From positions 1 through 55,777 of the forward strand of contig CALRBT010000005.1 in NCBI GenBank assembly GCA_943354475.1: a stretch of 55,777 nucleotides of DNA, in the 5' to 3' direction. This document shows positions 587-54,722 of the stretch, piece by piece. The position numbers and the translations under genes are program-made. Numbering within the stretch: the stretch's first letter is position 1; each line of letters opens with the position of its first letter. The notes beneath the pieces were generated by a model. That model saw only the letters and a list, made by a program, of their open reading frames with translations. It did no database searches and was not told the origin of the DNA. Source of the stretch: Parcubacteria group bacterium. GTDB lineage: Bacteria > Patescibacteriota > Minisyncoccia > Phycocordibacterales > CALRBT01.

Positions 587-3500
587 TTAGATGGTGACAG
601 AAAGGGTCTGAGAATCCGTTGGGAGTTCTTTTACCTTGTAGTCATTCAACCAGTCAGCTGTAGTTTCGCTATGGCTGTTAGCTGAACGATCTGACCATAC
701 AAATGAAGGTGTTTGTGTTCCTGCGGCACCAGCAATTACAGAATAGATATCTGGAGTTGCGATACTTGATGTAGGAGCTGCAACACTGACGCTTAGGTAG
801 GTAAGACCTGACCATGTTCCGCCAATAGTGCTCTTCAAGCTGTATGTCTCTGATGAAGAAACTTGCTGTTCAGAATCAGCTACGAAGCTAATGGTTCCAC
901 TCGTTAGAGTAGTTCCGAGAGCGTCGAGGCCTCCAGCCACAGAAGCTGTTGAAGTAGCGAATGTACCAGAAATCACGTTGTTATTGCTATCAACCAATTG
1001 CATAGTACTTGTCGCACCAACAGTAACTGCTGCTGTCTTTGTGATTGTGAACACTATTTTCTTCCATCCAATCTGGTTAGCGGCGTCGGCATCAACTTTA
1101 ACCTTCGCAAGAACCTTTCCAGATCCAGGTGAAAGAATGCTAGATGCCTGAGCAACCATGTTTACGGTAGGCTTACTCTTGACTACGTACATGTTGCTTG
1201 CTGCTTGGTCTGTGGCATATTCTGCCTCAGTTCCACCAGTCCATGGCTGATACTTGAAGCCTTCGAGTGTTACCTTAACATTTGCTGTTGAGGTAGCTGA
1301 ACCAGAAGAAACGGTGTTGAGGTCAAGATAGACATCAACCAATGCTCCTGCTGAATCGTTTGAAGGAATCTTCAAAGCTAGGCCTGTTGTAGTACCGGTA
1401 AATACTGAGTTGAAGGAACTAATTGTTCCAATTTCTGTACTACCATTCTTAAGTACTGCTCGTACGATGGCACCTGAAGAGTTTGCGTTCGTTACCTTAA
1501 GTGCAATATCAGTAACTTTGAAGTCCTGATTAACTGCAGTAAGTCTAAATGAAGCAACTTTCTTTCCTGTGTTTCCACCAACAAGTAATGTTGTTGCTAC
1601 TGATGAATCAGTAAGCGCGGTAGCTGCAACGCTTCCGGCAGCAGCGGTGATTGTCTGGCCTACAACTGCACCTGTTGATACAGATGAGTTACTTGCTGAC
1701 GTACCAGCGACTGTTAGAGAAGGAATTGTTGTGCTTCCAGTAAGGAAGGTTGAACTAAGTGTTCCGTACACTTCAAATGCCATAGTTGCACCTGCAGCCA
1801 AAGGCTCGCTGATGTTCCATGATTGTGAAGATGCACCTGTTGCTTTTACACTGGTTGTCTTTGTGCCGTATTTGACATAAAGATCAGTTGTAGAAGCAGC
1901 TACAGAATCTCCTCCAAGAGCGAGGGTGATTGTGTTGAGATTTACAGACTCAGCTGAGTTTGCAGTTACTCGGAAATCACCAATCTTGTAGGCGGTCTGA
2001 GGAACAACAACTGACTGACTACCGTATGCGCTGTACTTAGAACCAGTAACTGCTCCGACTGAAACTGTTCGAGTATTACCTGAAACAGCTGAGTTTGAGA
2101 AGTAAGTAAGGGCACTTGTTCGTTGTAAGTTACTTGATCCAGCAACGATTGTTGCGGTGATAGTATCACCAGAAACAATTGTGTGCTGAGTTACATCGTT
2201 GTCGTAGATATCAGCTTTTACTTCCAAAGTAACAGGTGTTCCTGGAGTTACTTTCAAAGCAGAACCTAGACTAAATGCAGTTCCGGCAATGGCACCAGAA
2301 ATGTTCTGGGTACTACCAACCTGTACTCCATTAGCAAAGAGTGTTCCGTTTCGGAGACTTACTGTCTGTCCTGCGACAGTTGTTTTTACAGTAAGAGTCT
2401 CTACCTTGATAGCTTCACCAGCTGCCTTAAGCTCAAATGTAGCAAGAACTACGTTTGAAGCATCAGGATTGATGTTACCTGAAGGTGAATCGGTCTTCTT
2501 TGTAATTGTAAGGGTTCCTGCGCTAATTGTCTGAACTCCTGATGTTTGTGCAGAGAATGTTCCGGCAGTTATCGTAGATAGAATTGGCTGTTTAAGTTCA
2601 CTATCAACAAGCATCACATCTGAAGCCTGTCGTAGAGAGAAGCTAAATGTTCGGGTAGAACCACCAACAATGTCAGCCATAAGCTTAATTGTTCGTGAAC
2701 CTGTAGCTAATCGTACCGGACTTGCGCTGAGATCGAATGATACGTATCCATTTGAATCAAGTGAAGCAACAGTGTTTCCAACCTTTACGCTATCGATAAA
2801 TAGCTCAAAGTTTTGAAGATCACTTGTTGTAACTGATCCAATTTGTCGGAAAGTAATGTTCTTAAGATCAAGAGCTCGTGTTCCCACGCTCAATTGTTCC
2901 TCCCATACTTTATAATCATCCTGAGGGTCAACATCCGCTGTTGTAGGAGCAAGTCCTGCAGTAACGAATACACCCGTAGCAAGTGTTGCAGCTGCAACAG
3001 ATTGAGTTCCTCCCATTATTGGGAATGTTCCTGATGCAGGAACACTTGACTCAACTGAAGTAAGCTGTACTCCAACAATCTGTCCAGCAGTTGAATCGAG
3101 GATGTCAGCTTTTACTGAAATCACAACAGAAGCTCCTGCAGGAACCATGAAGAGTCCTGATGGGTCATTGAAAGTAATAACTCCACTTGAAACTGTTGCA
3201 GAGTCAGCTGCTCGCTTTGAACCATTGAACAAGTTCACATTAACAAGTACTGAATCGTTTGAGATTCCAATTCGATTCAAGACAACTTTCGTTACCTTAG
3301 CCTCGGCACTTGTAGTGTTTGTGAAGGTGAAGTGTGCCAAGTCAGCAAGAGCTTGTCCTTGGATGATTGCACCGTTTGAAGGTGAATCAGGTGAAAGTGA
3401 AACCATAACTGTTGTTCCTGTTGGAACTACAGTTGTAGTACAAGGCTTTCCAGTAGTTGAGCTGTATGCAGCTCCTCCTGTACAACCTGTATCAACTACA

Positions 3501-9831: not shown

Positions 9832-10164
9832 TTAAAGGTTTTGTCCACTAAGTGTGGTTGTCCCAGCTACTATTTTTCTCATAACATCTCTCAAGAGCCA
9901 TAACGCAAGGAGCGCTAGACTTCCTATGAGGACCTTGACTCCGAGCTCGGTATTACTGAAAGCTGCGATATTAAATTGGTACCATGCACCAAAGTCGGTA
10001 ACGGTTGGCATGTTAGCTATTACATGCGAAATGGAGACTGAAGTTGAGAGTATGATAGTAAAAATAGCGGCGACATAAAGCTTGAGTGTCACTGGATTAA
10101 CTAGGGTATGCCAAATGTACACTGCATATACACGGCGCATGATTCTTTTGTTTAGTTGAGACAT
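9832..10164 (-). CDS. Small two-TM membrane protein, possible anti-sigma or partner of the ECF sigma
   Basis: Two hydrophobic segments; directly downstream of the ECF sigma gene. Confidence 0.6.
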   Translation of the reverse strand: MSQLNKRIMRRVYAVYIWHTLVNPVTLKLYVAAIFTIILSTSVSISHVIANMPTVTDFGAWYQFNIAAFSNTELGVKVLIGSLALLALWLLRDVMRKIVAGTTTLSGQNL

Positions 10165-44531: not shown

Positions 44532-44666
44532 GGATAGCTAGAGAGAATCGGGGTCAAGTTTCTAAGTTCGCAAGCTCACTAAGAACTTCCTCCCCGGACT
44601 CGCCGACAAGCACTCACTTTGTTCGTCTTGTATACCGGCTCCGTCTTTCAATACTCTCTAGCTCAC
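44532..44666 (-). repeat. tRNA-end-bracketed module (family B1) associated with tRNA-His
   Basis: Ends resemble the tRNA-His 3' end (gctagagagaatcg) in direct and inverted orientation; core closely similar to 51226-51347. Confidence 0.8.
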
Positions 44667-44807: not shown

Positions 44808-45326
44808 TCATTGATGCACAACGGACTGCGGCTTGTTGGGTTTACTTAATTCTTCCGTTGCAATATCAATAAATACTTTGTGAATGGCGCGGAATTCAGT
44901 TGTCATCTCGTTGTATGACTGAGATATAACTTTCTTTTCTCCTGACAGCATCGTTACGGAAATCTTAGCAGAACTTTCATCTGGAAGTCCCTTGATAGCT
45001 ATGTTTTTTATGTCCTCAAATTTGTTTTCGCTGAGAGAACGCACCAATCTTTCAAAGTTCGCCTGATTTCCCTTTTCTTCATAGGAAATTGTTCCCTGAA
45101 ATATTTTTCTTACGGATGTATCGCCAGCAGAATTAACCGAAACCTCATAACCTCCGTATAGACCACTCACATCAGACATTTCAATTTGCGCAATATCCTG
45201 ACCCAAACTCCCTGTGGTTGGTGTAGATTTGATTTGCGTTGCCTGTTTTTGAGATATCCCAAAATAATATCCAAGCAAAAGTAACACAGCGACGACCCCG
45301 ACGATATAGATTACTTTGTTCTTCAT
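44808..45326 (-). CDS. Membrane-anchored hypothetical protein
   Basis: ATG 45326 (MKNKVIYIVGVVAVLLLLGYYF), N-terminal TM helix; lies between tRNA-His and its duplicated end. Confidence 0.65.
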   Translation of the reverse strand: MKNKVIYIVGVVAVLLLLGYYFGISQKQATQIKSTPTTGSLGQDIAQIEMSDVSGLYGGYEVSVNSAGDTSVRKIFQGTISYEEKGNQANFERLVRSLSENKFEDIKNIAIKGLPDESSAKISVTMLSGEKKVISQSYNEMTTEFRAIHKVFIDIATEELSKPNKPQSVVHQ

Positions 45327-45397: not shown

Positions 45398-45470
45398 GGG
45401 TGGCTAGAGAGAATCGAACTCTCGATACCAGTTCCACAAACTGGAGTTTTACCACTAAACTATAGCCACC
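45398..45470 (-). tRNA. tRNA-His(GTG)
   Basis: Cloverleaf ggtggctatag..ccagt-ttGTGga-actgg..gttcgattc..tagccacc, with encoded G-1. Confidence 0.96.
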
Positions 45471-48914: not shown

Positions 48915-49037
48915 GGCACCTGCAAATTTGGATGAAGTTCGAGGCGCGAGGAAACTGATTTCTGCAGACGTACTCAAGGTACGACGGAAGAAATCGGCGA
49001 CGAAGCAACGAAGAAATTCGCCAAATTTGCAGGTGCT
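48915..49037 (-). repeat. Structured intergenic repeat family A, copy 3 (overlapping the uppS stop)
   Basis: Outer stem gcacctgcaaatttgg/ccaaatttgcaggtgc around the shared core. Confidence 0.88.
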
Positions 49038-49722
49038 ACTTTCCGTGTCGTCGGTCGCGTTCACTATATTCTTCCAAAATTTTTAAAAATTCTTCTTTGC
49101 TAAAATCTGGCCAAAGAGTGTCACAGAAGAAAAGTTCACTATAAGCGATTTGCCACAGAAGAAAGTTTGAGAGTCGTTTCTCTCCGCCCGTTCGAATTAC
49201 CAAGTCAGGGTCAGGAACTCCTGCGGTCCAAAGAAACTGTCCGAAGTTACCTTCATCTACACCCTCCTGAACCTCTTTTGGTGCTTGCGCAAAGCGTTTT
49301 GCCGCTTCAACGATTTCAGCACGTCCTCCATAGGAAATAGCAATGACCAGTAAGAAACCGTCTCGCTCTTTTGTCTCCTCTTCAACTTCTTTCAAGTAAC
49401 CTTGAAGGTCTTCGGGTAGTCGCTCGATTTGCCCAGCGAATTTAATTTTTATATTTTCATCCTTCCAAAAATCTTTTTCTTGATGGAAAGCGATGCGAAT
49501 CAGGTCAAAAAGATAGCTCACCTCTTCTTCGGCTCGTTTCCAATTTTCTGTTGAAAAAACGTACACTACGGCTGATTTCACACCAGCTTCTTTAGCCCAA
49601 AGGACACAGTCCTTGAGCCTATCCTTGCCAGCCTTATGACCCTCAATTGAAGAAAGTCCTTTGCCCTTTGCCCATCTACGATTACCATCGATAATTACTC
49701 CGATCGAATTTGGAACTTTCAT
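49036..49722 (-). CDS. uppS: Undecaprenyl/polyprenyl diphosphate synthase
   Basis: IIDGNRRWA, FSTENWKR, IRTGGEKRLSNFLLWQ. Confidence 0.97.
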   Translation of the reverse strand: MKVPNSIGVIIDGNRRWAKGKGLSSIEGHKAGKDRLKDCVLWAKEAGVKSAVVYVFSTENWKRAEEEVSYLFDLIRIAFHQEKDFWKDENIKIKFAGQIERLPEDLQGYLKEVEEETKERDGFLLVIAISYGGRAEIVEAAKRFAQAPKEVQEGVDEGNFGQFLWTAGVPDPDLVIRTGGEKRLSNFLLWQIAYSELFFCDTLWPDFSKEEFLKILEEYSERDRRHGK

Positions 49723-49731
49723 TTCTTTAAA

Positions 49732-50007
49732 TTAATAGACAATATTAAAGCCAGTAAAGCTGAGATTTGGATTATCCCACGTAACTTCCACATTTTCAAC
49801 AGAAGACAAAAGAGATCCTCGGTGGAGATAACTGATTAGTTGCACAAGAAGTTCCTTCTCTCCTTGAGCAACAACCCACACGGATCCGTCAACAAGATTC
49901 TTTACTGTACCGACAAGCCCCAATTTTCGTGCTCGTCGCTTTACAAAATCTCGATACATAACCATCTGGACACGGCCACTGACCCTTACCTCTATTTGAG
50001 CGTTCAT
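49732..50007 (-). CDS. acyP: Acylphosphatase
   Basis: VSGRVQMVMYR..GTVKNLVDGSV. Confidence 0.93.
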   Translation of the reverse strand: MNAQIEVRVSGRVQMVMYRDFVKRRARKLGLVGTVKNLVDGSVWVVAQGEKELLVQLISYLHRGSLLSSVENVEVTWDNPNLSFTGFNIVY

Positions 50008-50123
50008 TAAAAAATTTTAACATAAACCCACAAAAACGAGCAGCGCAACAAATTGTCAGGCGTCGATTAACATATTGCGTAAATATCGATATACTTTAGA
50101 AACTAGCATTAACTCATTACATC

Positions 50124-51068
50124 ATGGATTTCCTTCGTCGAATTGGGCTTTCGCTTACCACTGGTTATATTTTTTTCTTTTTTGGTGAACGTATTTTTTG
50201 GTCACTTCCTAACAATCCCGAACTGAACACACCGATTGACCTCATGGCAACATGGCTTGTTTACTCATTTTTTGCCTACCTCTGCTTCATCATAATCAAG
50301 CAGTGCCGTGTCCGTTCGGTGTGGGCAGTGTTTTTAGTTGCCGCACTTTATGGTTGGCTTATTGAAGGGGTCTTCTCTTTAACCACCTTTGGTATTGGCA
50401 GTATGCCGTTCCCTTATTCAATTGTTTGGACAGCTCTGGCGTGGCACGCGCTCTGTGTTATGGGTGGCTGGTATTGGATGCTACAACTACTACAAACTTC
50501 AACAAAAAAAGTACTGATAGGTTCCATGCTCCTTGGTATCTTTTGGGGAGTTTGGTCACTCTACTGGCCAACTACTGGTTTGGTGTCGACACCTGTAAAC
50601 TATCTTGTGTATACACTTTTCTGGACAGCTCTCTATATCCTTGCACTTCATAGTTACCACTGGCTAAGCAGTGAGATATTTTCTGCAACAAAAACAGAGA
50701 AGGTAATATTAGGACTTATCACTCTTGCTTGGTACTGCGGTTTTACGGTGACACAAGGAGGCTTCTTACTTCCCCTTACTGTACTTCCCATCCTCTTTGG
50801 AATAATTTATTTTGCTTTACAAAAAAACAAACGGAAAGAGACCTCGCCTGACGTCCTCACTTCTATCAATAAAAGAATCTCTTTCAAACGATCCGTCTTT
50901 ATTCTCCTCGCCCCTCTTCTTGCCACAGCCATCTTTAGCTCTGGATTTTATTTTCCGACCAACATTCCTTACCTAGTGACACTGAGCACTCTCGGCATAG
51001 GAATGTTTGTAGTGAGTTTGTATAACGTATTTAGAACCAAGAAGTCTTCCCAGGGAATTGATAAATAA
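50124..51068 (+). CDS. Polytopic membrane hypothetical protein
   Basis: Many TM helices; ALYGWLIEG..LAWHAL motif. Confidence 0.75.
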   Translation: MDFLRRIGLSLTTGYIFFFFGERIFWSLPNNPELNTPIDLMATWLVYSFFAYLCFIIIKQCRVRSVWAVFLVAALYGWLIEGVFSLTTFGIGSMPFPYSIVWTALAWHALCVMGGWYWMLQLLQTSTKKVLIGSMLLGIFWGVWSLYWPTTGLVSTPVNYLVYTLFWTALYILALHSYHWLSSEIFSATKTEKVILGLITLAWYCGFTVTQGGFLLPLTVLPILFGIIYFALQKNKRKETSPDVLTSINKRISFKRSVFILLAPLLATAIFSSGFYFPTNIPYLVTLSTLGIGMFVVSLYNVFRTKKSSQGIDK

Positions 51069-51101
51069 TCCATTTTAGTTATACTGTATCCGTCCTTAAA
51101 A

Positions 51102-51174
51102 GGGCGATTAGCTCAGTTGGTAGAGCAACTCATTTACACTGAGAAGGTCGGGGGTTCAAGTCCCTCATCGCCCA
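51102..51174 (+). tRNA. tRNA-Val(TAC)
   Basis: gggcgattagctcagttggtagagc..ttTACac..ggttcaagtccctcatcgccca; TTGATA/TATACT promoter-like boxes at 51058-51085. Confidence 0.96.
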
Positions 51175-51225
51175 CTAAACAAAAGAGACAATGTATCACA
51201 TTGGTGATTATTGTTTATGAGGCAA

Positions 51226-51347
51226 GATGAGGGACTTGAAAGACGGAGGCGATATACAAGACGAGCTTTGCGAGGACTTGTCGCCGAGTCGGGGTCGAGA
51301 AAATTTTGTTTACAAAATTATTCGTGACCAAGTCCCTCATCGCCCAC
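51226..51347 (+). repeat. tRNA-end-bracketed module (family B1) after tRNA-Val
   Basis: Starts with an inverted copy (gatgagggacttgaa) and ends with an exact 19-bp direct copy (caagtccctcatcgcccac) of the tRNA-Val 3' end. Confidence 0.88.
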
Positions 51348-51400
51348 AAAAACTTAAAAACCCTAAGTGAGCTTAGGGTTTTTAAGTTTTTGTGGGCGAT
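51339..51400. repeat. Perfect inverted repeat with 29-bp arms
   Basis: atcgcccacaaaaacttaaaaaccctaag-tgag-cttagggtttttaagtttttgtgggcgat. Confidence 0.92.
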
Positions 51401-51427
51401 AGTAAGCAACCTGCCTTGCTTACGTGA

Positions 51428-51627
51428 AGGACTTGAAGAGTTTGAACGTATCGCGCGCAACGCAGTGAGCACGATATGTAAGGGAACACTTATACTCTTG
51501 AGTAAAAACCGTACAGAATCTGTAAGATTCAAGTCCTACTGACTTGAAAAGGTTCTCCCACATTTTTGAGGATATGTGTATCCGAAAAAATGGGAAACCT
51601 GAACTGAACCTGTAAGGTTCTAGTCCC
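51428..51627 (+). repeat. Two further T-arm-bracketed modules (family B2) after tRNA-Val
   Basis: 51428-51537 aggacttgaa..ttcaagtcct; 51541-51627 gacttgaa..ttctagtccc; both have a hairpin ending ctgtaag near the 3' end. Confidence 0.75.
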
Positions 51628-51671
51628 AAATGTTTTACTCGAGGTTTACCCCCCCCAGTAAAACAGTAAAA

Positions 51672-51839
51672 CAGGAGTCTCCCCCAACGGGGGCGGGTAT
51701 CTTTCTCGTTTTGCTTCGCAAAACATAGAAGGGTCTTTCGAGACCTACACAGTAGGAATCTTTCCCTACGGGAACGGTACAGGCTTCATATCGTACTCGC
51801 TTTGCTCCGTGCGATATATTCAGCCTTTTCGATTCCTAC
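51672..51839 (-). repeat. Two T-arm-bracketed modules (family B2-like) downstream of tRNA-Arg
   Basis: 51752-51839 gtaggaatcgaa..gattcctac and 51672-51748 gtaggtctcgaa..gactcctg (minus strand) copy the tRNA-Arg T-stem. Confidence 0.72.
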
Positions 51840-51888
51840 ACGCTCGTGCATTGGCACGAGCTCGGGGGGACACTCACTACGTTCGTTG

Positions 51889-51960
51889 TCCCCCCGGTAG
51901 GAATCGAACCTACATCAAGAGCTTAGAAGTCTCTTGTTCTATCCATTGAACTACGGGGAG
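51889..51960 (-). tRNA. tRNA-Arg(TCT)
   Basis: ctccccgtagttcaatggatagaac..ctTCTaa..gtaggttcgattcctaccgggggga. Confidence 0.94.
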
Positions 51961-52089
51961 AAAAACTAGTTGTTAGGTTATAACTTACAGATACTAGCTT
52001 GGACACAAAAACCTAAAACAATATAGGCACACTAGCACAAAAGTAAGGTCAGATAAAGCCTGTTTTTTGTTCTTAGTTCTTGATTCTTA

Positions 52090-52422
52090 TTAGATGCCGG
52101 GGTCAGCGATTTCAGGTTCACTTATTCGGTACATCTCGAAAGTTCGAGCTCTATTTTGAAAAAATGAAAGTGTCTCTTCGAGGGCTTTGTTGTCAAGTGC
52201 TATAACTGACTTAGTAGCACTTATTACCCTTGGTTCAGAGATGCCACGATTAACTTGAAGAAATAAATATCCATCAAGTGCCAACACCAGCAACACAGTC
52301 AATATCAAAAAACTGACGTTAATCTTCCAGTCTCGATTACGATGATGTTCCAGTGTCGAGACTTTGCTACGAACGAAATATTTTTTAAATTTTAACAAAA
52401 CAGGCCTAAGTGAAATGTTCAT
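52090..52422 (-). CDS. Single-TM hypothetical protein at the end of the pilMNO cluster
   Basis: One TM helix; co-oriented after the PilO-like gene; start trimmed to ATG 52422. Confidence 0.65.
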   Translation of the reverse strand: MNISLRPVLLKFKKYFVRSKVSTLEHHRNRDWKINVSFLILTVLLVLALDGYLFLQVNRGISEPRVISATKSVIALDNKALEETLSFFQNRARTFEMYRISEPEIADPGI

Positions 52423-52427
52423 AAGAA

Positions 52428-53051
52428 TTATTTGTTTTTTAACACATTGAGTGAAAATACCCCACTCCAACGTCTCACCTTACCTTTAAGGTCAGTATCT
52501 GGAACCACAGTAAGGTTTGCTTGAGTAAAATTGACTTGGTACGGCATCGTTTCAACTAACGCAATAAACTGCATGACATCAGCCCACCTCCCATCAACCC
52601 TAACTTGCAAATGAAGTATTTCCCACTTACTTAAATCAGATGGTTGTATTGCTTCATTTTTAAGAACAACAGGATCTTTTGATTTCGTTTCTGTGGTCGA
52701 TTTTGTTTTTCCCAAAAGAGGTGTGAAACTTGGGGTTTGAATTTCAAGAGTAAGATTATTGGTACTTGCGAGTTTCTCAAGTGAGACAAGAAATGCAACC
52801 GTATTCTCATCCTTTTGCCCGAGAAAATATGAGTTCAGAGTGTCTCTCTTTGTTGAAGTTTCATTAAACAACGTTTTATTCTCACTAAGGTGTTTTACTT
52901 TCTCCGCTTCATTTGCGATATCTTGGGCAAGTAAAGAAACTTCCATCTCTTTCTGTAAAATACTCCAGTATAGAAAGCTGTGTAGCGCTATTGCTACAAG
53001 GACCACTCCTGTCAGCATAGCGACAATTATTTTGGTTGGTAATGATTTCAT
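52428..53051 (-). CDS. PilO-like type IV pilus assembly protein
   Basis: TM helix plus coiled coil; VDGRWADVMQFIALVETMPY; position after PilN-like gene. Confidence 0.7.
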   Translation of the reverse strand: MKSLPTKIIVAMLTGVVLVAIALHSFLYWSILQKEMEVSLLAQDIANEAEKVKHLSENKTLFNETSTKRDTLNSYFLGQKDENTVAFLVSLEKLASTNNLTLEIQTPSFTPLLGKTKSTTETKSKDPVVLKNEAIQPSDLSKWEILHLQVRVDGRWADVMQFIALVETMPYQVNFTQANLTVVPDTDLKGKVRRWSGVFSLNVLKNK

Positions 53052-53053
53052 AT

Positions 53054-53590
53054 CTAAAAATTCCCTTTAATACTGAGCGTAAAATCTAAATTCTCAGCTT
53101 TTATTAAATCAGCGATGGAATGCTTAATTTCCGTGAATGATTTTTCATTCTGGAGGCTATTCTTAAAGTTAATGAGTGCATCTCTTGTTGTAGCGTGGCC
53201 GGTGAGTACTAAGGAGTTGCTACCTCCCGTAGTTGTGTAATCGATACTCTCAAGTTTGACTCCAGGTACCATTTGGTTAGTAATTTTGGTAACCATCGCG
53301 ATAAGGGTTGTATCGTCTCGTTCCTGGCGGAGTACGGAAATCTTATTGGTTATGTCTCCAAGGGCAGTAATATAATCCTCACCTTGAGTTGCTTTGATTG
53401 TACTAATCATTTCTTCTTTTATTTTCGTACGATCATCATGTTCAACTTTCAGTAAAACATATGTTGGTATAAGAAAAGCCAACCCAATGAGGAGTGCTGT
53501 TAGAGTGAAAACAAGGATGATTGAAGCTATGCGTAATCGATACTCCACCCTGATTTTCTTTTTACTATACTCTGGTAGTAGGTTTGGCAT
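53054..53590 (-). CDS. PilN-like type IV pilus assembly protein
   Basis: MPNLLP start (PilN NLLP motif), TM helix, LTGHATTRDALINFKNSL. Confidence 0.8.
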   Translation of the reverse strand: MPNLLPEYSKKKIRVEYRLRIASIILVFTLTALLIGLAFLIPTYVLLKVEHDDRTKIKEEMISTIKATQGEDYITALGDITNKISVLRQERDDTTLIAMVTKITNQMVPGVKLESIDYTTTGGSNSLVLTGHATTRDALINFKNSLQNEKSFTEIKHSIADLIKAENLDFTLSIKGNF

Positions 53591-53600
53591 TGTTTTTATT

Positions 53601-54722
53601 TTATGAAGTTCGAAGTGCCAAACCGACCGTCGTTGCGTAACGAAGGGAGTCAGCAAAATCAATTGGTGGAATGGTTTTTTCAAAATCAAGAACATTCGTC
53701 CAGACATTTCCCAACTCAACCGACATACGTAAACTACTAGAGAGATAGTCAACGAGACCAATCAAGTTGGCGTCCCCTCCGCAGAGAATGATTTTCTGAA
53801 TTTGGTCAGGAACCCTACCCTCTCGGTCTTTTGAGTTATGCCAGTAGATATAATGACGACTAATTTCATCACGAAGTACTGAAACCGGAGTCAGGAGTGC
53901 ATTGAACACTTCTTTATTTTCAAAGTTTTTTGAAAGTCCTTTTTCTTTCTTTATTTTTTCCGCCTCCTCTTCCCCTATTGAGAATATTTTCTGGAGTGCT
54001 GTACATAGTAGATTTCCACCAATATCAAGTGTTGAGGTATATCTAACTACTCCTTCACTCTTTATCGAAATACCACTTCTTGTTTTACCAAAATCGACAA
54101 TCATATACGTTCCCAAATCTCCAAATGGTACGAGTGAACGGGCTATCGCTTGTGCCTCAATTTCAAAAGAGAGGGGTATCAATCCGGAAGTTTCAACCAA
54201 TTCCGTATAGCTCTGCACAATAATCCCCGGCATGACGGATACGCTCACCTCTATATTTGTCGACTGTGCTTCATTTGCCTTTATGGGGTCAAAATCAAAA
54301 ATAACTTCAGCGGGAGAAAGGGGGACATTGTCCTCAAGACCAAATTCGATACTGCTTCGCATTTCTTCTTCACTCCCCCGAGGAATTGATGTTTTGAAGA
54401 GGTACACCTTTTCTTCAGGGAGTGAGACTCTAACGAAACGAAAACCAAACTTTTTTTTGAGATCCTTTAAGATTTCCCGAAGAACTTCTGGTTTTACTAA
54501 TTCTCCTGAAACCACAACTCCGTTGGGTATATCGAGATTACCAAATCTTCCGATTGTAAAACCCTCTTTTTTTGGAAGGAGTTCAAGAAACCGAACGGAT
54601 TGATATGATATATCAAGTCCGACCGATTGCATTTCCAAAAACTTTGGCACAGGAAACATTCGTAAAAATAAATCGTGATCGTGTTGATTCGCAATTGTCT
54701 TATTTATCAAAGTCGCTTTCAT
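53601..54722 (-). CDS. pilM: Type IV pilus assembly protein PilM
   Basis: GLDIS, IVDFGKTRS, IILCGGDANL, YATTVGLALR (actin-like fold). Confidence 0.92.
   Translation of the reverse strand: MKATLINKTIANQHDHDLFLRMFPVPKFLEMQSVGLDISYQSVRFLELLPKKEGFTIGRFGNLDIPNGVVVSGELVKPEVLREILKDLKKKFGFRFVRVSLPEEKVYLFKTSIPRGSEEEMRSSIEFGLEDNVPLSPAEVIFDFDPIKANEAQSTNIEVSVSVMPGIIVQSYTELVETSGLIPLSFEIEAQAIARSLVPFGDLGTYMIVDFGKTRSGISIKSEGVVRYTSTLDIGGNLLCTALQKIFSIGEEEAEKIKKEKGLSKNFENKEVFNALLTPVSVLRDEISRHYIYWHNSKDREGRVPDQIQKIILCGGDANLIGLVDYLSSSLRMSVELGNVWTNVLDFEKTIPPIDFADSLRYATTVGLALRTS

Follow-up and report, generated by a model that had tools for sequence, protein, structure and literature searches.

A family of small folded modules found behind tRNA genes in a Patescibacteria genome

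What fills the gap between two convergent tRNA genes, and how did the repeated segments in it come to carry copies of the tRNA next to them? The locus lies in a 55,777-nt stretch (the window) of a Parcubacteria group bacterium (contig CALRBT010000005.1, positions 1 to 55,777, assembly GCA_943354475.1). A sequence-only reading had described three modules behind tRNA-Val and two behind tRNA-Arg on the opposite strand, each bracketed by T-arm sequence. It had inferred polarised, sequential accretion of modules at tRNA 3' ends, that is, an array-like record of insertions. Our analysis confirms what was observed: three modules follow tRNA-Val(tac) and two follow tRNA-Arg(tct). Each is predicted to form a three-way junction closed by a stem made of an inverted and a direct copy of the neighbouring tRNA's T-loop, T-stem and acceptor 3' strand. 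The proposed record of insertions is only partly borne out. The modules belong to a large family, and a literature search, limited to listings and the openings of abstracts, found no description of such elements.

Five modules between tRNA-Val and tRNA-Arg

The tRNA genes were identified with ARAGORN and confirmed with Rfam covariance models. Modules were delimited by a search for inverted and direct repeats, by folding, and by a covariance model of the core (model R1). Features are collected in Table 1.

Table 1. Features of the convergent module arrays and of a further module in the window. The tRNA tail (X) is the segment copied in the brackets; z-scores compare folding with shuffled sequence.
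Coordinates	Strand	Feature	Description	Evidence
51102..51175	+	tRNA-Val(tac)	T-loop 3' part, T-stem 3' strand and acceptor 3' strand (X, about 51157-51175) are the sequence copied in the Val modules	ARAGORN; Rfam tRNA 70.6 bits; promoter-like site at 51058-51085
51176..51225	+	Spacer (centre 1)	Between the tRNA and module V1, with an imperfect hairpin	Sequence; fold
51226..51347	+	Module V1	A-type core; inverted tail copy 51226-51240, core 51241-51328, direct tail copy 51329-51347 (19/19 identical to the tRNA)	Repeats; z -5.25; A-type consensus structure, 15 of 29 pairs with compensatory changes in 6 copies; other copies in the genome
51339..51400	+	Palindrome (centre 2)	Perfect, 29 bp; outer 9 bp are the acceptor 3' strand of the V1 tail copy and its complement (51392-51400, the first bracket piece of V2); terminator-like, with T runs	Inverted repeat, 100% over 29 nt; z -13.25
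51401..51424	+	Arm hairpin of V2	Conserved; sits where the acceptor and T helices of a tRNA would meet	Fold; same arm at the same place in other modules
51425..51539	+	Module V2	B-type core with nested 26-nt hairpin at about 51478-51503; inverted T-arm copy 51425-51437, direct copy 51528-51539	Model R1 84.1 bits; repeats; nested hairpin motif
51541..51629	+	Module V3	Short C-type core; decayed brackets at 51541-51548 and about 51617-51629	Model R1 56.3 bits; closest copy behind tRNA-Trp on contig C9; z -3.67
51631..51665	.	Hairpin	Meeting point of the two convergent arrays	Repeat
51671..51751	-	Module A2	Distal Arg module; core 92-98% identical to the first module behind tRNA-Arg(gcg) on contig C7; decayed brackets	Sequence comparison; model R1 21.8 bits
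51752..51842	-	Module A1	Proximal Arg module; B-type core without the nested hairpin; brackets match the Arg T-arm, 12/12 inverted and 9 nt direct	Model R1 102.7 bits, the best hit; repeat; z -3.81
51843..51887	-	Left part of the A1 unit	16-nt spacer with a motif shared by other units, complement of the Arg acceptor 3' strand (51863-51871), arm hairpin	Repeat; comparison of units
51888..51960	-	tRNA-Arg(tct)		ARAGORN; Rfam 62.6 bits
44537..44662	-	A-type module behind tRNA-His	tRNA-His-specific brackets; about 740 nt behind tRNA-His (45398-45469, -), with a 172-aa ORF (45326-44808) in between; same layout with a cargo gene	nhmmer E 6.9e-8 to V1; sequence; ORFs; no family for the ORF

The inverted copy in V1 is 15/15 complementary to 51155-51169, and the direct copy extends to 51351, with 96% identity over 23 nt to 51157-51179. 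In V2, 51428-51437 pairs with 51528-51537 (10/10), and in A1, 51828-51839 is 12/12 complementary to 51897-51908. The sequence-only reading had also proposed a second core shared by a Val and an Arg module. This is real: 51423-51478 and 51787-51842 are 73% complementary over 56 nt, i.e. in the same orientation relative to each tRNA, and both modules are hits of model R1. All five modules fold better than shuffled sequences, with z from -2.3 to -5.25.

The tail copies are more than chance. Exact copies of at least 9 of the 13 tRNA-specific tail bases occur downstream of 9/39 (direct) and 7/39 (inverted) tRNAs of the genome, whereas with other tRNAs' tails on the same regions the rates are 0.6% and 0.5%. 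Direct copies of at least 11 nt lie downstream of 9 tRNAs and upstream of none, within up to 25 kb each way. The claim that bracket similarity falls with distance from the tRNA holds in these arrays: the Val direct-copy match is 19, then 9-12, then about 8 nt, and the Arg match is 9 nt, then a mismatched copy. However, it does not hold for every array in the genome. At tRNA-Arg(gcg) the distal copy matches better (9 against 6 nt).

A large family linked to tRNA genes

To determine whether the locus is a local oddity, we searched this 786-kb genome with model R1. The model finds 20 copies, of which 18 lie 27-359 nt downstream of a same-strand tRNA; the other 2 are near contig ends. It also finds 1-34 copies in 26 of 40 genomes of the same order. 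In the fetched loci of these relatives, 28 of 35 copies have a same-strand tRNA 31-579 nt upstream, covering 19 anticodons, compared to 14 anticodons in this genome. In relatives the longest exact direct match to the 17-nt tail averages 11.7 nt, against 4.8 nt for other tRNAs, and is at least 9 nt in 19 of 28 copies. A phylum-wide scan with stricter filters found no copy in 150 genomes, but only 1 of these was of the same order and 5 of the same class. This limits this core type to the order among the genomes searched, and says nothing about other core types.

The core appears to be a structure under selection. In the alignment, 88% of cells are paired, against 71% in shuffles (0 of 500 shuffles reach it) and at most 48% when the partner is slid. 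All 5 pairs of helix P3 covary, and in 51 copies P3 is Watson-Crick in 245 of 255 cells. The counts of G-T and A-C mismatches were 15 against 10 (p = 0.42), and so give no sign of sense-strand RNA selection.

Near-identical cores sit at different tRNAs. The nearest-neighbour core sits at a different tRNA in 33 of 38 cases, and the Arg(tcg) and Pro(tgg) cores are 94% identical while their arms and brackets differ. The nested hairpin of V2 is lineage-specific, being shared by modules at Val, Pro, Leu and Cys and found in 0 of 40 relatives. The three Val modules in the window carry three different core types and the two Arg modules two types, and each type has closer copies at other tRNAs, so the modules are separate acquisitions rather than tandem duplicates. 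While these patterns suggest mobility or exchange, recent identity between copies at different tRNAs covers only the core, not the arm or spacer. This fits exchange of cores between existing scaffolds as well as it fits movement of whole units.

Ordinary attL/attR scars of large integrase-borne islands or prophages, mostly deleted since, were considered as a source of the repeats. Direct repeats of a tRNA 3' end are the classic mark of such elements, two loci keep a gene between the tRNA and the module (tRNA-His and tRNA-Glu(ttc)), and a large serine recombinase gene lies next to the tRNA cluster on contig C9. However, one conserved, structured core of about 90 nt recurs behind many different tRNAs, and the inverted tail copy and the arm are not features of att scars. 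Apart from the His case, no tail copy lies further than 390 nt downstream, the genome has only one tyrosine recombinase, of Xer type, and serine recombinases are absent from the module-richest genomes. We therefore regard this reading as very unlikely and close to refuted.

Module content in relatives and in lake metagenomes

The sequence-only reading was to fail if module content were invariant across relatives. At tRNA-Val(tac), module presence and type vary among 17 same-order genomes: 10 have one or more modules and 7 have none. In one relative (G022), a distal tail copy keeps the older acceptor sequence while the tRNA itself has since changed on both strands, showing that a distal copy can be a frozen record. 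The layout also fits insertion at the tRNA-proximal end. In contrast, another relative (G030) has identical tandem units, which show that unequal crossing-over also builds arrays. Since polarity is not universal, and since no insertion or excision event was seen, the record of insertions remains partly supported; a comparison with a purposeful, CRISPR-like record has no support.

The relatives compared share the order but not the family with this genome. A metagenome scan with the 314-aa upstream ORF gave 12 loci at 38-50% identity, none with tRNA-Val next to the gene. Contigs of four lake metagenome runs (X1, X4, X5 and X6) from three studies carry the same module content wherever they cover it, with 0-1 differences, although rare variants would be missed in contigs at such low depth. 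The single joint skipping 335 nt, in X1, comes from a record with 11 other letters in 77, which is another organism's tRNA-Val. No circle, hairpin intermediate, empty/filled allele pair or excision joint was seen in these data, and no run on record as RNA held more than 0.06 of the sampled words.

We next asked whether the modules could be working RNAs, made by read-through from the tRNA promoter. In this view they would be tRNA-like minihelices (acceptor plus T helix), cut out by RNase P and RNase Z, acting as decoys, processing signals or regulators tied to their tRNA. Where a tRNA was assigned, the modules lie on its strand and downstream of it, the units fold into an acceptor-like helix, an arm and a T-like helix, helices covary and junction bases are strongly conserved. 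Cores are up to 91% identical between genomes of different families, and no promoter-like site of their own was found. However, distal copies decay and lose their acceptor part, module number, type and presence vary at the same tRNA, and the G022 tail copy did not follow its tRNA's change. Terminator hairpins often stand between the tRNA and the module. Over positions 49000-54000, Rfam models matched only the two tRNAs, plus chance microRNA-hairpin matches at E up to 1; they gave no match at the gathering score in the two further loci L062 and L073. A hammerhead-like reading of the junction, judged by eye, does not fit either. An RNA function is thus possible but unlikely.

Search for an enzyme or a vehicle

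No dedicated enzyme was found. Serine recombinases can be rejected, as the module-richest genomes, G025 (34 copies) and G017 (25 copies), have 0 hits. Y1 HUH transposases show no association, being found in 4 of 5 module-rich genomes, 2 of 5 module-free genomes and not in this genome, where no Y1, IS110 or TnpB gene scores above cut-off. An origin by tRNA-primed reverse transcription (PBS-like) is rejected because the tail copies lack CCA where the gene lacks it, and because a reverse transcriptase is present in only 1 of 5 module-rich genomes. A core inserted into the T-loop of a tRNA copy is also rejected, since the 5' bracket is the complement of the T-stem 3' strand and of the loop, not the T-stem 5' strand. 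One pattern hit in viral contigs, examined as possible phage vehicles, had no model match and no tRNA, and so is chance. A tyrosine recombinase is present in 38 of 40 relatives, in most as a single copy of Xer-like size, but only the copy of this genome, at 13560-14075 on contig C8, was typed as Xer-like.

A model of insertion at the T-loop

We propose that the five modules are copies of a family of small (about 80-130 nt), non-coding, structured insertion elements that settle at the 3' end of tRNA genes in this order of Patescibacteria. The sequence itself shows the unit: the tRNA with its own tail X (T-loop position about 54-57 to the 3' end); a spacer, which is a short conserved motif, a terminator hairpin or occasionally a gene; the complement of the acceptor 3' strand; a conserved arm hairpin; the complement of the T-stem and T-loop; a conserved core of about 70-90 nt; and X again. 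The mechanism, including any catalysis by a host recombinase, is inferred. In this model the element exists as a small circle or folded single strand in which X and its complement pair, and that stem reproduces the double-stranded tRNA-gene segment, as a folded integron attC site or the CTX-phage attP(+) hairpin reproduces its target. It would recombine with the tRNA gene at the T-loop, leaving the element's X to complete the tRNA and pushing the old X behind the core. Repeated events would put the newest unit next to the tRNA, giving arrays whose inner palindromes are later trimmed. The leading guess is that the single Xer-like recombinase is hijacked, a tyrosine recombinase being the only site-specific recombinase common to module-bearing genomes. 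The cargo cases, the frequent terminators in spacers, the direct repeat that usually ends at the tRNA end and the fossil tail copy in G022 are as expected from T-loop integration.

We consider this model about as likely as not. Insertion at the T-loop of a different tRNA would give a chimeric, broken tRNA, so the model does not by itself explain how one core family serves 14 or more tRNAs in one genome, nor why the tRNA-specific pieces lie inside the conserved scaffold. Hairpin-templated correction (quasi-palindrome template switching) after a mis-targeted insertion is one possible route by which the brackets could become matched. In two relatives the direct repeat runs 17-25 nt past the tRNA end, which a fixed recombination site does not predict. 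Finally, where orientation could be assigned, the core has that of the tRNA, which together with the conserved junction bases would also fit an RNA function.

It is also possible, though we think it unlikely, that no dedicated recombination system exists. The tail copies could arise locally by replication template switching at the hairpin-prone tRNA 3' end (inverted duplication or triplication), with cores spreading between such scaffolds by short-patch gene conversion or homologous recombination, helped by DNA uptake from relatives and with the conserved tRNA gene as the homology arm. High identity between copies at different tRNAs is confined to the core, which is bounded by T-loop-derived bases common to many tRNAs, and the direct repeat varies in length from 9 to 36 nt or more. 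The spacer palindromes are perfect although paralogues differ in sequence, as templated correction would give. The tandem units in G030, the lack of an enzyme that co-occurs with the modules and the type IV pilus genes in the window are also in keeping with this view. However, the inner boundaries are fixed for each core type, the direct copy starting at about position 56 (A-type), 57 (B-type) or 54 (C-type). Orientation is strictly one-way in 18 of 18 copies in this genome; in relatives only a same-strand upstream tRNA was looked for, and found for the 28 of 35 copies given above. Together with the conserved arm and spacer motifs and the three-way-junction core, this points to a specific recognised structure rather than replication accidents. 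Nor does local template switching explain how the first scaffold at a new tRNA acquires arm and core.

A more speculative reading, which we consider improbable but not excluded, is that the modules are a new kind of mobile element whose target-matching segments (two complementary to the tRNA's acceptor and T strands and one identical to them) are embedded in a conserved scaffold and re-templated from each new target. In effect this would be a nucleic-acid-matched, re-programmable insertion system that needs no element-encoded protein and uses a host enzyme (the Xer-like recombinase, or replication and repair functions) on a folded strand that mimics the tRNA gene or the tRNA top half.

If the insertion model holds, tRNA genes of these ultra-small bacteria are landing pads for a protein-less class of structured mini-cassettes that can also carry genes. 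That would be a route of genome change and gene capture in a lineage thought to be poor in classical mobile elements. One conserved core with brackets tailored to more than twenty different tRNAs is a concrete puzzle about target recognition, and solving it could reveal a new way of directing DNA insertion. In practical terms, the family breaks assemblies, since several copies sit at contig ends, and can mislead tRNA and non-coding RNA annotation in Patescibacteria.

Comparison with known systems

One of the closest parallels is integration of CTX phage, a Xer-exploiting element (IMEX), by XerCD at dif, and the tandem arrays that it builds. In the attP(+) hairpin, two inverted copies of a target-like sequence separated by about 90 nt can fold in a single strand into a copy of the double-stranded target, and the integrated form has the order target copy, element, inverted copy, about 90 nt, target copy. 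This genome has only a Xer-like recombinase to offer. Here, however, the target is a tRNA T-loop and 3' end, not dif, and it differs from locus to locus. The elements are about 100-200 nt and mostly without genes, and neither a phage nor a single-stranded form was shown.

Integron attC sites are likewise structure-defined imperfect inverted repeats of similar size (about 60-140 nt, a range that the predicted module folds satisfy), at the 3' end of each unit of an array next to a fixed insertion point. The newest unit is proximal, and the outermost bases of the site are exchanged with the target. However, the single tyrosine recombinase of this genome scores 128.9 bits against a cut-off of 265 for the integron-integrase model TIGR02249, its best models being XerD, XerC and XerA. 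There is no attI or Pc and no conserved R-box motif, most cassettes are empty, and the stem sequence is that of the local tRNA.

Islands and prophages integrated by tyrosine integrases of the T-loop sublocation class share the direct repeat running from the T-loop to the tRNA's 3' end at both borders, an element that supplies a new 3' end and often a terminator, and tandem accretion. The modules differ in carrying no integrase, in their size of 100-200 nt, in the added inverted tail copy, arm and conserved folded core, and in that one family serves many tRNAs. The two cargo cases hold the 172-aa ORF without a family and, behind tRNA-Glu(ttc), an ORF of roughly 80 aa, estimated by eye.

Bacterial MITEs and REP/BIME-type hairpin repeats (Correia, RUP, ERIC; RAYT-mobilised REPs) are also small, non-coding, hairpin-forming, dispersed, present in many copies per small genome, and nest within each other. 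In the modules the terminal inverted repeats are not the element's own but those of the neighbouring tRNA. There is no fixed-length target duplication, as the direct repeat has a fixed inner edge and a variable outer edge. Insertion is behind tRNA genes and in one orientation wherever a tRNA was assigned, and no matching transposase was found among the Y1, IS110 and TnpB families.

Lastly, transposing non-canonical tRNA introns of Thermoproteales are small structured insertions associated with tRNA loops, including the T-loop, that spread among different tRNA genes. The modules, in bacteria, lie behind the gene, and the upstream tRNA gene is intact and needs no splicing.

Structured modules between convergent tRNA genes

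The window is contig C5 of a 786-kb, 16-contig Patescibacteria genome that is 98% complete. Its tRNA-Val(tac) and tRNA-Arg(tct) genes converge on a gap of 712 nt. The sequence-only reading had described three modules behind tRNA-Val and two behind tRNA-Arg, each bracketed by T-arm sequence, and this observation is confirmed. A repeat search recovered the brackets of both arrays, together with a core shared by the second Val module and the first Arg module in the same orientation relative to each tRNA. All five modules fold better than shuffled controls, with z from -2.3 to -5.25. Positions are listed in the table.

Coordinates of the repeats, modules and associated features (window positions unless a contig is named; this genome unless a relative is named)
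Location	Strand	Feature	Observation
51102-51175	+	tRNA-Val(tac)	
51226-51240		Inverted copy of the Val T-loop, T-stem and first acceptor bases	15/15
51329-51351		Direct copy of the Val tail	23 nt, 96%
51339-51400		Perfect 29-bp palindrome	Outer 9 bp are the acceptor 3' strand and its complement
51428-51437 / 51528-51537		Further bracket pair	
51528-51548		Short palindrome between successive modules	
51828-51839 against 51897-51908		Arg bracket pair	
51888-51960	-	tRNA-Arg(tct)	
		Core shared by the second Val and first Arg modules	56 nt
44537-44662	-	A-type module with tRNA-His brackets	About 740 nt behind tRNA-His
44808-45326	-	ORF between tRNA-His and its module	172 aa
43970-44557	-	Gene just behind the His module	Class IV adenylate cyclase (CyaB) homologue
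51478-51498; C8:19777; C9:2276; C9:2559; C2:23203; C1:145974; C1:65004; C2:39931; C2:76953; C2:91857; C8:3889		Small hairpin repeat	About 26 nt, 11 places
C2:153-307; C15 end (about 10013-10164)		Repeat shared by two contig ends	155 nt, 86% identical
C9:1-1600 (locus L055)	-	Large serine recombinase gene	526 aa, starts about 220 nt behind tRNA-Leu(tag)
C1:34528-34600		tRNA-Gln(ctg)	26-nt exact copy of its own T-arm and acceptor 3' strand at +46
Relative G030, contig C28 (locus L029), 1150-1510		Two identical tandem units behind tRNA-Val(tac)	182 nt each
Relative G027, contig C21 (locus L078), about 1455-1625		Module behind tRNA-Lys(ttt)	Direct repeat of 36 nt, 17 nt beyond the tRNA end
C9:1560-1620; relative G017, locus L103, 1625-1680		Further shared hairpin motif	Behind tRNA-Leu(tag) and behind the tRNA-Tyr module of G017

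A recurring layout behind tRNA genes

The gap sequence has many partial copies elsewhere in the genome, and nearly all of them lie just behind tRNA genes. Marking each tRNA's tail and its complement in the downstream DNA revealed one recurring layout. The tRNA is followed by a spacer, which is either a conserved motif of 14-16 nt or a terminator-like hairpin, then by the complement of the acceptor 3' strand, a conserved arm hairpin, the complement of the T-stem 3' strand and T-loop, and a conserved core. The T-loop 3' part, the T-stem 3' strand and often the whole acceptor 3' strand then appear again. The predicted folds give an acceptor-like helix, the arm, and a T-like helix that closes a three-way junction.

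To test the specificity of the brackets, we used only the 13 tail bases that are specific to each tRNA. Exact copies of at least 9 nt occur behind 9 (direct) and 7 (inverted) of 39 tRNAs, compared to rates of 0.6% and 0.5% when the tails of other tRNAs were searched for in the same regions. Direct copies of at least 11 nt lie downstream of 9 tRNAs, at 55-390 nt, while none lies upstream within up to 25 kb. tRNA-Gln(ctg) is followed at +46 by a 26-nt exact copy of its own T-arm and acceptor 3' strand, preceded by tRNA-like sequence; this is a partial tRNA duplicate without a module core. Most tRNA genes of the genome do not encode CCA but have a C after the discriminator base followed by A-rich sequence, and a minority encode the full CCA.

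Eleven copies align well and support the helices we assigned. In this alignment 88.1% of cells are paired, compared to 71.3% in column shuffles (0 of 500 shuffles reach the observed value) and at most 48% when the partner was slid. Of 25 pairs, 15 change on both sides, and all five pairs of the small hairpin P3 covary. In 51 copies from 24 genomes, P3 is Watson-Crick in 245 of 255 cells, helix P2a in 180 of 193 and the bracket stem P1 in 270 of 309. The bases at the junction are nearly invariant. The A-type core, carried by the first Val module (V1), has its own three-way junction, in which 15 of 29 predicted pairs show compensatory changes in six copies. One rival explanation is that the modules are working tRNA-like RNAs. 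A count of G-T against A-C mismatches gave 15 against 10 outside the poorly aligned helix (p = 0.42), which does not show which strand folds or whether the selection acts on RNA. No Rfam family matches.

Distribution in this genome and in relatives

A covariance model of the core (R1) finds 20 copies in this genome. Of these, 18 lie 27-359 nt behind a same-strand tRNA, covering 14 different anticodons. The other two are near contig ends, with no tRNA in the 218-406 nt available upstream. Two contig ends, on C2 and C15, share a repeat upstream of orphan modules. The module on C15 has brackets matching tRNA-Ala(tgc), which sits at the end of contig C10, and the assembly probably breaks in this repeat.

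Among same-order genomes, each from a different family, 26 of 40 have 1-34 copies. None of 150 genomes sampled across the phylum matched under stricter filters, although that sample held only six genomes of the same class. In loci fetched from relatives, 28 of 35 copies have a same-strand tRNA 31-579 nt upstream, covering 19 anticodons, and at least three of the seven without one sit at contig ends. The direct bracket of these copies matches the 17-nt tail of the local tRNA over 11.7 nt on average, compared to 4.8 nt for other tRNAs. The match is at least 9 nt in 19 of 28 copies and complete in 10.

Modules move or are exchanged

Core sequences do not follow tRNA identity. The nearest-neighbour core sits at a different tRNA in 33 of 38 cases, 18 in the same genome and 15 in another, although the sample is uneven because 20 of the 51 copies are from this genome. 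The cores behind tRNA-Arg(tcg) and tRNA-Pro(tgg) are 94% identical, but their arms, spacers and brackets differ, and the identity stops at the T-loop-derived bases. The same holds for the distal Arg module of the window and the first module behind tRNA-Arg(gcg). Local template switching combined with exchange of cores is a rival explanation.

A 21-nt piece of a nested small hairpin sits at the same position in the modules behind Val, Pro, Leu(taa) and Cys. This second, smaller hairpin repeat occurs at 11 places in this genome, partly in tandem clusters, and in 0 of 40 same-order relatives; four copies are nested inside tRNA modules. That variant therefore spread among four tRNAs within this lineage. 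A further shared hairpin motif lies behind tRNA-Leu(tag) in this genome and behind the tRNA-Tyr module of the relative G017, where it is followed by an HNH-like ORF of 126 aa.

Module content was also compared at tRNA-Val(tac). Of 17 same-order genomes with downstream sequence, 10 have modules, one of them truncated, and these modules are of different types and numbers. The remaining seven genomes have only a terminator or a gene. In the relative G030, each of the two identical tandem units consists of tail, terminator, inverted tail, arm and core, showing that unequal crossing-over between tail copies also occurs.

Arrays in the window

The three Val modules carry an A-type core, a B-type core with the nested hairpin, and a short C-type core, while the two Arg modules carry a B-type core and a fourth type. 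The arrays are therefore independent acquisitions. The first unit behind each tRNA has the best brackets. Between successive modules, only a short palindrome is left of the tail copy, spacer and inverted copy, as seen within the Val array and at the junction of the two Arg modules. We read this as trimming of unstable palindromes. By our reading, the proximal module has the equal or better tail copy in five of six arrays of the genome, the exception being tRNA-Arg(gcg).

The sequence-only reading had inferred polarised, sequential accretion of modules at tRNA 3' ends, that is, an array-like record of insertions. Our data support this interpretation only in part. No insertion polymorphism was seen, as contigs of four lake metagenome runs from three studies carry the same content wherever they cover it, with 0-1 differences.

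Cargo genes and a frozen tail copy

Two loci have an ORF between the tRNA and the module sequence. The ORF between tRNA-His and its A-type module encodes a probable membrane or secreted protein with no NCBIfam family, and the CyaB homologue just behind the module scores 77.1 bits against a cut-off of 57.95. Behind tRNA-Glu(ttc), a 17-nt tail copy, preceded by the end of a module, lies 388 nt downstream with a small ORF in between.

In the relative G022, the tRNA-Val acceptor has changed on both strands. The tail copy behind its module keeps the older sequence, which is still found in the tRNA of the relative G006. The copy is therefore a frozen record and is not kept matched to the tRNA.

Candidate enzymes and inferred mechanism

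We next asked which enzymes could act on the modules. This genome has one tyrosine recombinase, of Xer type, three large serine recombinases and one reverse transcriptase. It has no Y1 transposase, and no IS110 or TnpB gene scores above cut-off. One large serine recombinase gene lies at the end of a cluster of four tRNAs packed with modules on contig C9, and a second (429 aa) lies about 900 nt behind tRNA-Gln(ttg). Among relatives, serine recombinases are missing from the module-richest genomes. A reverse transcriptase is present in 1 of 5 module-rich genomes, and Y1-like genes are in 4 of 5 module-rich and 2 of 5 module-free genomes. A tyrosine recombinase, usually one and of Xer-like size, is in 38 of 40 relatives. 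It is the only candidate left among those tested, although this is presence and not evidence of action.

The layout, the tRNA linkage, the matched brackets and the covarying helices are established by the sequence comparisons, whereas the mechanism is inferred, and any role of a Xer-like recombinase in it is a guess. The order of tail (X), spacer or cargo, inverted X, core and X is what integration of a circle [X, spacer, inverted X, core] would give after a crossover at the inner edge of X in the T-loop. In this view, the element's X and terminator complete the tRNA gene, and the old X ends up behind the core. Ordinary att scars are nearly excluded as an alternative. It should also be noted that this model explains neither target matching nor the enzyme. 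The tRNA-specific pieces lie inside the conserved scaffold, insertion into a different tRNA would break that tRNA, and recent identity covers only the core. In addition, the direct repeat runs 17-25 nt beyond the tRNA end in two relatives. In one of these, G027, the arm of the tRNA-Lys(ttt) module is formed by that flank and its complement.

Full-text literature searches, judged from listings and the opening of abstracts, returned nothing on such elements. We regard the family as a form of hairpin-site integrative element in which the paired arms are those of the neighbouring tRNA. In a single strand, X and its complement would pair and reproduce the duplex of the tRNA gene, with the core of about 70-90 nt lying between the two arms. 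This is the geometry of folded integron attC sites and of the CTX-phage attP(+) hairpin.
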